Shown here one piece after another: positions 39,001 through 42,000 of a DNA stretch of 64,000 nucleotides. Numbering within the stretch: the first letter of the stretch is position 1; every line of letters starts with the position of its first letter. Source of the DNA: Escherichia coli (GTDB lineage Bacteria > Pseudomonadota > Gammaproteobacteria > Enterobacterales > Enterobacteriaceae); the NCBI RefSeq assembly GCF_024502345.1, contig NZ_JALDNN010000001.1, one strand, 5' to 3'. The position numbers are program-made.

Positions 39001-42000
39001 TTCGAGGTAGCAAGATCGTTCATGCCAAACCACGCCGCAATGGTGAAGATGGCAAGGAACGGCACCCATATCCAGGACGCATTCGCCAGATACAGCTCAG
39101 TCCCATCCGGCTGTTTGACGCCCTGGCTACCAAATACTGCGAAAATCGACAGTGATACCACCAGCGGAGCAACCAACTGCATGACGCTGACGCCCATGTT
39201 TCCCAGACCACCATTCAGACCCAGCGCGCCACCCTGCTTTTGTTTCGGAAAGAAGAAGCTGATGTTTGCCATACTGGATGCGAAGTTCGCGCCAGCAAAG
39301 CCGCATAGCAGAGAGATGATGATGAAGACGCTATAAGGCGTGGAGGTATCCTGCACGGCAAAACCCAGCCAGACGCAAGGAATAATCAGAATACCGGTGC
39401 TGAACGCCGTCCAGCGACGACCACCGAAGATAGGAACCATAAAGGAGTATGGAACACGTAATAACGCGCCAGAAACCGAAGGCAGCGCAGTCAACATAAA
39501 TAGCTGATCGGTCGTAAAATTAAAACCGACTTTCGGTAAGTTCACCGCAACAGCGCTGAACAACATCCATACGCAAAACGCCAGCAGCAGACAGGGAACG
39601 GAAACCCACAGGTTGCGGCTGGCAATACGTTGACCGCGTTGTTGCCAGAACGCAGGATCTTCCGGTCGCCAATCTGTAATGACAGCTCCAGTAGCCCTTT
39701 CGGGGGCGGATGAGTGACTCATAGACACCTCTGATACTCGTTTCGATGTCTGCCACCTTAGTGTCTGTAGCTAAAGGCAATTTGATGTAAATCAAACGAT
39801 AAGATAACTTTATCTATCATTGATATTTATCATTACCCATAGTGAGTACAGTGATTTCATAAAAATTATGAGATTTTTCACGGTGCTGTAAAATCCCTAC
39901 CCTTACCGATGTAAAGCGACTAACCACACGGCAAATAAGGAGTAACTCTTTCCGGGTATGGGTATACTTCAGCCAATAGCCGAGAATACTGCCATTCCAG
40001 AATGTATCGTCACATTCATTAAGGTTATTGCTCTTTTAAAGCCTGAAGGAAGAGGTTTACATGCTTAAACGTTGTCTCTCTCCGCTCACCCTGGTTAATC
40101 AGGTTGCGCTTATTGTGTTGCTTTCTACTGCTATTGGACTGGCAGGGATGGCGGTTTCTGGCTGGCTGGTGCAAGGCGTTCAGGGCAGCGCCCATGCAAT
40201 CAACAAAGCGGGATCGCTGCGCATGCAAAGTTACCGTCTGCTGGCAGCAGTGCCATTAAGCGAGAAAGACAAGCCCTTAATTAAAGAGATGGAACAAACA
40301 GCATTTAGCGCCGAGTTAACCCGAGCAGCAGAACGAGACGGACAACTGGCGCAATTACAGGGTTTACAAGATTACTGGCGTAATGAACTGATCCCTGCGC
40401 TAATGCGTGCACAAAACCGCGAAACGGTGTCAGCGGATGTCAGCCAGTTTGTTGCCGGGCTTGATCAACTGGTATCTGGTTTTGACCGCACCACGGAAAT
40501 GCGCATTGAGACAGTGGTGCTGGTCCATCGGGTAATGGCGGTATTTATGGCACTTTTACTGGTGTTCACTATTATCTGGTTGCGGGCGCGACTGCTACAA
40601 CCGTGGCGGCAATTGCTGACAATGGCGAGTGCCGTCAGTCATCGCGATTTTACCCAACGCGCAAACATCAGCGGGCGCAACGAAATGGCGATGCTTGGAA
40701 CTGCATTGAACAATATGTCTGCAGAACTGGCCGAAAGTTATGCCGTACTTGAGCAGCGGGTTCAGGAGAAAACCGCCGGGCTGGAGCATAAAAATCAGAT
40801 CCTCTCTTTTTTATGGCAGGCTAACCGCCGTTTGCATTCCCGCGCCCCGCTGTGTGAACGCCTGTCACCTGTACTCAACGGCTTACAGAATTTAACCCTG
40901 CTACGTGATATCGAATTGCGGGTGTATGACACTGATGATGAAGAGAATCATCAGGAGTTTACCTGCCAGCCAGATATGACTTGTGATGATAAAGGCTGCC
41001 AGCTCTGCCCGCGCGGCGTATTACCCGTTGGTGATCGCGGCACGACCCTGAAGTGGCGGCTGGCTGACTCTCATACGCAGTACGGTATTTTGCTGGCGAC
41101 CCTGCCGCAGGGGCGTCATCTTAGCCATGATCAACAACAACTGGTGGATACCCTGGTTGAACAACTCACCGCCACGCTGGCGCTGGATCGCCATCAGGAA
41201 CGTCAGCAACAGTTGATCGTGATGGAAGAGCGTGCCACCATTGCGCGCGAACTGCATGATTCTATTGCCCAATCTCTCTCTTGCATGAAGATGCAGGTGA
41301 GTTGTTTACAGATGCAGGGCGATGCGCTGCCAGAAAGCAGCCGCGAACTGTTAAGTCAGATCCGTAACGAACTGAATGCATCCTGGGCGCAGTTGCGTGA
41401 ATTGCTCACCACATTCCGCTTGCAGCTCACCGAGCCTGGATTACGTCCGGCGCTGGAGGCGAGTTGCGAAGAGTACAGCGCCAAATTTGGCTTCCCGGTG
41501 AAGCTGGATTATCAATTGCCGCCTCGTCTGGTGCCTTCACATCAGGCAATCCACTTGTTGCAAATTGCCCGTGAGGCATTAAGTAACGCCCTCAAACATT
41601 CGCAAGCGAGTGAGGTCGTGGTGACGGTGGCGCAAAACGATAATCAGGTCAAACTGACCGTCCAGGATAACGGCTGCGGCGTGCCTGAAAATGCCATCCG
41701 CAGCAATCACTACGGCATGATAATAATGCGCGACCGTGCGCAAAGTTTACGAGGCGATTGCCGCGTCCGCCGTCGTGAATCAGGTGGCACCGAAGTGGTG
41801 GTCACCTTTATTCCCGAAAAAACTTTCACAGACGTCCAAGGAGATACCCATGAGTAATCAGGAACCGGCTACTATCCTGCTGATCGACGATCACCCGATG
41901 CTGCGAACTGGCGTAAAACAGCTTATCAGTATGGCACCAGATATCACCGTGGTTGGCGAAGCGAGTAATGGCGAACAGGGTATTGAACTGGCGGAGTCTC

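Follow-up and report, generated by a model that had tools for sequence, protein, structure and literature searches.

A conserved FNR activator site and an Escherichia-restricted FNR-like box overlapping NarL heptamers upstream of narK in Escherichia coli

Results

The stretch of E. coli DNA analysed here (64,000 nucleotides; hereafter, the window) carries two FNR-like boxes upstream of narK, an assignment that is well supported. The site is very probably the known E. coli narK promoter, with an essential FNR input through the proximal box (box 1) and a role for the upstream box (box 2) that is accessory at most. The tandem architecture is already known, and both boxes are held in regulatory databases.

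The annotation of the window includes the nitrate-respiration cluster of E. coli, with narK and narG transcribed in one direction and narX and narL in the other (Table 1). The boxes had been placed upstream of narK in a first-pass annotation, and narK is indeed annotated directly downstream of them on the minus strand, divergent from narX. An ORF finder called a GTG at 39728, two codons upstream of the narK ATG. Of 5426 complete E. coli genomes, 5415 carry annotations of narK and narX under and beside the match. The intergenic region between them is 338 bp long with 38% G+C, and only two bases, 40034 and 39855, set it apart from that of K-12 MG1655. As both lie outside the boxes, the literature on the K-12 promoter is directly applicable. 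Coordinates in Myers et al. (2013) refer to U00096.2, which is offset from U00096.3 by exactly 777. On the far side of narK, an IS1 element sits downstream of the gene in the window, in contrast to K-12, and the 127-bp insert that K-12 carries past the narK stop codon is absent. The IS1 insertion was checked with a query for the empty site, as a query with the junction was swamped by other IS1 copies.

Table 1. Features of the narK-narX region in the window. Positions in the fourth column are relative to the putative narK start.
Feature	Coordinates	Strand	Position	Remarks
narG	33418-37161	-		annotated
narK CDS	38331-39722	-		463 aa plus stop; ATG at 39722
narK transcription start (A), putative	39747	-		box 1 centre (39788.5) minus 41.5; 25 nt upstream of ATG
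-10 hexamer TAAGGT, putative	39755-39760	-	-13 to -8	conserved alignment block
Box 1	39782-39795	.	-41.5 (centre 39788.5)	TTGATGTAAATCAA (TTGATTTACATCAA in narK sense)
Palindrome AGATAA-CT-TTATCT	39802-39815	.	-61.5 (centre)	between the boxes
NarL heptamer TATCTAT	39811-39817	+	-64 to -70	between the boxes; database-listed, scan
Box 2	39820-39833	.	-79.5 (centre 39826.5)	TTGATATTTATCAT (ATGATAAATATCAA in narK sense)
NarL heptamer TATTTAT	39824-39830	+	-77 to -83	inside box 2; CoryneRegNet/RegulonDB b1223 site, context TAATGATAAATATCAAT
NarL heptamer TACCCAT	39834-39840	+	-87 to -93	scan, database-listed
NarL heptamer TACTCAC	39842-39848	-	-95 to -101	scan, database-listed
narX CDS	40061-41857	+		divergent from narK
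narL		+		with narX

The proximal box fits the FNR consensus, TTGAT-N4-ATCAA, at all 10 of its specified positions, bearing out the earlier claim of a perfect box beginning at 39782. We scanned the window with an FNR matrix built from 62 ChIP-bound sites (Table S6 of Myers et al. 2013, with the narK site left out), and box 1 ranked first among the 63,987 positions at 20.3 bits. Perfect consensus matches occurred three times in the window where 0.14 were expected, a count never reached in shuffled sequences, and matches with at most one mismatch occurred seven times against an expectation of 3.28.

Published data assign the same DNA to FNR in vivo. The sequence TTGATTTACATCAA at 1277107 (U00096.2) in Table S6 of Myers et al. 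(2013) is box 1, with a PatSer score of 17.06 and ln p of -16.52. The same study gives -41.5, counted from the known start, as the position of the best-scoring narK FNR site, assigns narK to Category 1, the genes directly activated by FNR, and reports an FNR ChIP-seq peak at 1277080-82 over narX/narK. An earlier ChIP-chip study had mapped an FNR peak at 1277131, likewise at narX/narK, and a published FNR table gives narK an expression ratio of 0.068, which we read as fnr mutant over wild type. In Salmonella, expression of narK and NarS requires both FNR and NarL and is lost in fnr and narL mutants. In the narK promoter, box 1 is the established site of class II activation by FNR: it combines the consensus match with in vivo FNR occupancy and FNR-dependent anaerobic expression, the latter two taken from the literature. 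We found nothing that speaks against this assignment.

This site is also retained far outside E. coli. Orthologous narK loci from about 25 genera, 46 in all, were compared, and 43 of them have a box 1 with no mismatch, a count that includes Citrobacter JGM124, whose ATG position is unconfirmed. Its distance to the ATG was 64.5 to 71.5 nt in 40 loci and 88.5 nt in three Rahnella, and a conserved -10 block lies between the box and the gene. The FNR box of Vibrio ruber, 68.5 nt from the narK ATG, has one mismatch, and the only matches upstream of narK in Yersinia nurmii are distant ones with two mismatches.

Because Myers et al. (2013) place box 1 at -41.5, transcription would start at 39747, leaving a 25-nt leader and setting the position of the -10 hexamer; this derivation combines their assignment, which uses a curated start, with K-12 coordinates that we checked. 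It agrees with the first-pass annotation, which had put the start roughly 25 nt upstream of the narK ATG. In an alignment of 27 narK upstream regions, the putative -10 element reads TAATGT in most other genera, as opposed to TAAGGT here. We found no match to a -35 element at the narK promoter, which a sigma-70 scan left uncalled; the missing -35 fits a class II, activator-dependent promoter. The sole call of that scan, a sigma-70-like site at 39892 to 39865 on the minus strand, was dropped, as its -35 element is not conserved outside Escherichia.

Consensus NarL heptamers (TACYYMT) lie upstream of the FNR site, as is characteristic of a NarL promoter. Two of them, TACCCAT and TACTCAC, form an inverted pair with a 1-bp gap (39834 to 39848) that abuts box 2, and the block containing this pair (CTACTCAC..GGG, -87 to -101) is conserved across genera. 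A consensus scan identified further heptamers upstream, TACTCCT at -191 to -197 and TACCCAT at -211 to -217, and these two and the inverted pair are all database-listed NarL sites of narK. A narK NarL entry is credited to Li, Kustu and Stewart (1994) in the main text that cites it. The palindrome that lies between the boxes is specific to Escherichia and falls inside a 51-bp stretch in which E. coli and E. albertii do not differ (see below). Scans of the intergenic region for other regulators returned nothing convincing: the best Fur match had 6 mismatches of 19, the single IHF match with one mismatch overlapped box 1, and the CRP matches were box 1 itself and a two-mismatch match at -120 to -135.

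The upstream box carries a single mismatch to the consensus, in the outermost base of one half-site. A second, near-consensus box had been noted in the first-pass annotation, and it is present, lying at 39820-39833 rather than at the implied 39821-39834. The two box centres are consequently 38 bp apart and not 39; with box 1 at the proposed -41.5, the second proposed position of about -80 becomes -79.5. Two consensus-type FNR sites are thus present upstream of one start. The strengths of the two boxes are far apart, with box 2 ranking eighth in the window at 13.6 bits, a score in the bottom fifth of those bound sites from which the matrix was built. It is not in the genome-wide PWM list of Myers et al. 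(2013), which has a cut-off of ln p -10.75, and therefore falls below that published threshold; Table 1 of the same study counts one FNR site for narK. In the CoryneRegNet 4.0 FNR set reproduced in the MotifAdjuster supplement, by comparison, ATGATAAATATCAA and TTGATTTACATCAA are both FNR sites of b1223 (narK), within the entries GGGTAATGATAAATATCAATGATA and ATCGTTTGATTTACATCAAATTGC, and the same DNA is also entered under b1222 (narX). The comparison with the characterised narK promoter proposed in the first-pass annotation therefore finds both boxes already listed as narK FNR sites.

A separation of 38 bp corresponds to about 3.6 helical turns, which places box 2 on roughly the opposite face of the DNA from box 1. 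Positions of -61.5, -72.5, -82.5 and -92.5 are quoted for CRP as lying on the activating face. The same series reportedly applies to FNR. Box 2 is 3 bp from the nearest of these positions, -82.5. We also considered whether the ChIP-seq peak indicates which box is occupied. Its centre (1277080-82) lies 4.5 to 6.5 bp from the box 2 centre and 31.5 to 33.5 bp from the box 1 centre; among 62 pairs of sites and peaks, however, the median offset was 23.5 bp and 45% of offsets were at least 31.5 bp. We rejected the peak centre as evidence of occupancy, as the offsets are too scattered to separate the boxes.

The conservation of box 2 is far narrower than that of box 1. Among the 46 loci, E. coli and E. 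albertii alone have a second box at the homologous position with no more than two mismatches. Such a box is absent from Citrobacter, Enterobacter, Klebsiella, Raoultella, Kluyvera and others in this set, and also from Escherichia sp. MOD1-EC7003, in which 3 of 19 intergenic differences fall inside box 2 (P = 0.04). The tandem arrangement is thus not conserved in orthologous promoters. The distal half-site of box 2 belongs to a conserved block. Its consensus half, ATCAA, arose newly in Escherichia, with a T-rich tract in its place in other genera.

Comparison of E. coli with E. albertii identified differences at 38 of the 338 intergenic positions, with none between -52 and -102. The probability of one difference-free gap of at least 51 bp is about 0.05, and that of two, the number observed, about 0.0004. 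The lack of change in box 2 by itself between the two species does not reach significance (P = 0.19). The 51-bp block coincides with the whole NarL heptamer array, so that its conservation is no particular evidence for box 2. Within the species, 5387 of 5417 E. coli records share one and the same version of the 55-bp segment that includes box 2; we rejected this identity as a sign of selection on box 2, as diversity in the species is too low.

Three characterised promoters, in addition to K-12 narKp itself, bear on these observations. The DNA of K-12 narKp is the same, with both FNR boxes and the NarL heptamers listed (RegulonDB/CoryneRegNet; Myers et al. 2013), and the promoter described here is not a different one. 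The FNR 14-mer of nirB is identical to narK box 1, with the same PatSer score and the same -41.5 position, and both promoters combine FNR with nitrate-responsive NarL. They differ in that nirB has a 7-2-7 NarL/NarP site, whereas the best heptamer pair at narK has a 1-bp gap, and in that nirB has no second FNR site in Table S6. The yfiD promoter resembles narK in its tandem FNR sites (about -40.5 and -93.5), a strong proximal class II site and a weaker upstream one. Its boxes are 53 bp apart in Table S6, however, compared with the shorter spacing at narK, and its upstream site passes the PWM threshold (13.87) that narK box 2 fails. FNR at the upstream yfiD site lowers activity. The upstream box of narK overlaps NarL heptamers. 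The third promoter, hlyE, has an FNR/CRP site (-69 TTTGATATTTATCATA -54) whose 14-mer, TTGATATTTATCAT, is the same as box 2 and has documented occupancy by both FNR and CRP. That site, the sole one of its kind at hlyE, has its centre at the same-face class I position -61.5, as opposed to -79.5 for box 2. The flanks also fit CRP less well at narK box 2 (6 of 10 positions) than at hlyE (8 of 10), as counted from the sequences.

Discussion

During anaerobiosis a [4Fe-4S] FNR dimer occupies box 1 of the narK promoter, as documented, and box 1 stands in for the -35 element. As is established for promoters of this class, FNR would recruit and activate sigma-70 RNA polymerase at the weak -10 element in a class II mechanism, with transcription predicted to proceed from about 39747 into the short leader. 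NarL-phosphate on the upstream heptamers, from -64 to -101 and beyond, is documented to add nitrate induction. Whether FNR occupies box 2 probably depends on the presence of NarL-phosphate, with which FNR bound there would be expected to compete. As box 2 lies within the NarL-binding stretch and contains the heptamer TATTTAT, it would be an accessory site at most.

How box 2 itself functions admits several readings. A substantial possibility, which we nevertheless hold at somewhat below even, is that it acts solely as a NarL site: the region from -64 to -101 would be an array for NarL-phosphate, and the resemblance to FNR sites (-73 to -86) would be incidental in AT-rich DNA and unoccupied by FNR in vivo. 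All four heptamers across this region are database-listed, the 51 bp free of differences between E. coli and E. albertii match the array rather than box 2 alone, and the box falls under the PWM threshold in a study that counts one narK site. In two of these heptamers, TATTTAT and TATCTAT, the C conserved at position 3 of TACYYMT is nonetheless missing, so that they would be weak NarL sites too, and the 14-mer of box 2 is bound by FNR at hlyE. Box 2 is, moreover, database-listed as an FNR site as well, and a further box with no more than one mismatch is not readily produced by chance, arising in the rest of the 338-bp intergenic region with P = 0.022 in 20,000 dinucleotide shuffles. That probability cuts both ways, as it would predict about one such coincidence over the dozens of promoters controlled by FNR. 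We consider it unlikely, however, that box 2 is a functionless product of chance, AT-rich DNA drifting in and out of likeness to the FNR consensus. Its restriction to one lineage, with the ATCAA half new in Escherichia, and the concentration of MOD1-EC7003 differences within it are consistent with such an origin; against it are the near-uniform 55-bp segment, for all the low diversity of the species, the lack of change in E. albertii within a substitution-free block, and the overlap with DNA listed as bound by NarL.

By analogy with yfiD, FNR at -79.5 might instead dampen activation from -41.5 when nitrate is absent, and NarL-phosphate might displace it when nitrate is present, sharpening the nitrate response. 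A second, upstream FNR suppresses activation by the promoter-proximal FNR at yfiD, tandem upstream CRP raises or lowers activity depending on its position, and a listed NarL heptamer shares its DNA with box 2, all of which speaks for such modulation. The upstream yfiD site is near -93.5, however, rather than -79.5. Sharp repression is reportedly found near -85/-95. Nearly all other enterobacteria, furthermore, have the NarL pair and box 1 and lack box 2, so that any dampening role would be a lineage-specific refinement, and we regard modulation of this kind as improbable. Less probable still is service of the divergent narXL promoter, by both boxes or by box 2 alone, in place of narK. The CoryneRegNet FNR entries for b1222 (narX) comprise the DNA of boxes 1 and 2 and a third site at 40000-40023 of the window, but MotifAdjuster flagged two of these three entries for removal. 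The boxes lie some 230 to 280 bp upstream of the narX ATG (266-279 bp for box 1 and 228-241 bp for box 2), and the distance of box 1 to the narK ATG is fixed in most genera. FNR control of narXL is said to be weak or absent. Weak accessory activation by FNR at box 2 takes whatever probability these four readings leave.

For the promoter as a whole, we retain the reading in which FNR acts essentially through box 1. We give rather little credence to a more specific proposal, in which box 2 is a composite element peculiar to Escherichia, with an FNR box and a NarL heptamer sharing one stretch of 14 bp for which their regulators compete. FNR at -79.5 would then hold back the -41.5 FNR in the absence of nitrate, as at yfiD, and be evicted by NarL-phosphate in its presence. 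If true, this would be a recent layer, found only in E. coli and E. albertii, that steepens the dependence of narK on nitrate.

Since narK is a textbook FNR/NarL promoter, the finding matters little beyond annotation. Box 1 ranks with the most strongly conserved FNR sites, and box 2, which overlaps a NarL heptamer, is weak, young and confined to Escherichia. Tandem sites matched to a consensus need not mean two working activators.

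Insertions in the narK-narG intergenic region

A complete IS1 element lies between narK and narG, flanked by a 9-bp target duplication (Table). The insertion falls about 50 bp beyond the narK terminator hairpin. The inferred narG start is 239 bp downstream of the element, which stops just short of the NarL heptamer cluster of narG. Nearly all complete E. coli genomes (5408 of 5415) have the target site uninterrupted. A database query, in which other IS1 copies dominated the matches, returned no exact match to the IS1 junction of the window.

The closest database relative, E. coli FDAARGOS_943, carries another IS1 in the same intergenic region (3716-4483 of its locus), at the equivalent of window positions ~37306-37320 and in the opposite orientation. 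This copy precedes the narG start by ~90-100 bp; it separates the FNR box from the upstream NarL sites and probably cripples nitrate induction of narG. Because these two insertions are independent, they suggest that the narK-narG intergenic region is a target hot spot for IS1.

The sequence just after narK differs from that of K-12 MG1655, which has an extra ~127-bp insert directly after the narK stop codon (1850-1977 of the MG1655 locus) that looks like an ERIC/IRU repeat and falls within the annotated 184-nt narS sRNA. The window has no such insert (~38300-38331), so NarS would be much shorter there than in K-12.

Features mapped in the window
Feature	Position	Sequence	Remarks
IS1, complete	37457-38224		768 bp; narK-narG intergenic
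IS1 target duplication	37448-37456 and 38225-38233	ATGAAATCC	9 bp
narK terminator hairpin	38283-38310
narG NarL heptamer cluster	37401-37430
narG FNR box	37253-37266	TTGATAACGATCAA	perfect; narG -41.5 site
ompW FNR box pair	5839-5852 and 5884-5897	TTGATCTGGATTAA and GTGATTTAAATCAA	consensus scan, PWM
FNR consensus in ORF	29397-29410	TTGATGCTTATCAA	perfect; inside 280-aa ORF
NarL heptamer pair	39834-39848	TACTCAC-T-ATGGGTA	narK sense; inverted repeat, 1-bp gap
Conserved block	~39862-39885	CGTGAAAAA(T/C)C(T/A)CA then T-run	-115 to -138 from narK start
CoryneRegNet FNR site for narX	40000-40023	CCAGAATGTATCGTCACATTCATT	just upstream of narX ATG

Conserved elements upstream of narK

The best-conserved NarL heptamer pair upstream of narK differs from the canonical 7-2-7 arrangement in its 1-bp gap, which is retained across genera in the alignment. 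Further upstream, a block kept in nearly all aligned genera is more strongly conserved than some of the NarL heptamers and is similar to a CRP site: a consensus scan placed within it a CRP-like match, CGTGAAAAATCTCATA, with 2 mismatches and centred at -127.5.

FNR boxes elsewhere in the window

The list of Myers et al. (Table S6; U00096.2 coordinates) gives the narG FNR site, TTGATCGTTATCAA at 1278982, as bound. Two bound ompW sites in that list (1311927 and 1311882) match the second spaced pair of FNR boxes in the window, 45 bp apart, which ranked 6th and 2nd among window positions scored with the PWM. The narX site recorded in CoryneRegNet fits the FNR consensus poorly, and its removal was flagged by MotifAdjuster. 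The perfect consensus inside the 280-aa ORF corresponds to the 'within purU' site of Myers et al., which was not bound in ChIP-seq and thus shows that a perfect match to the consensus is insufficient for FNR occupancy.
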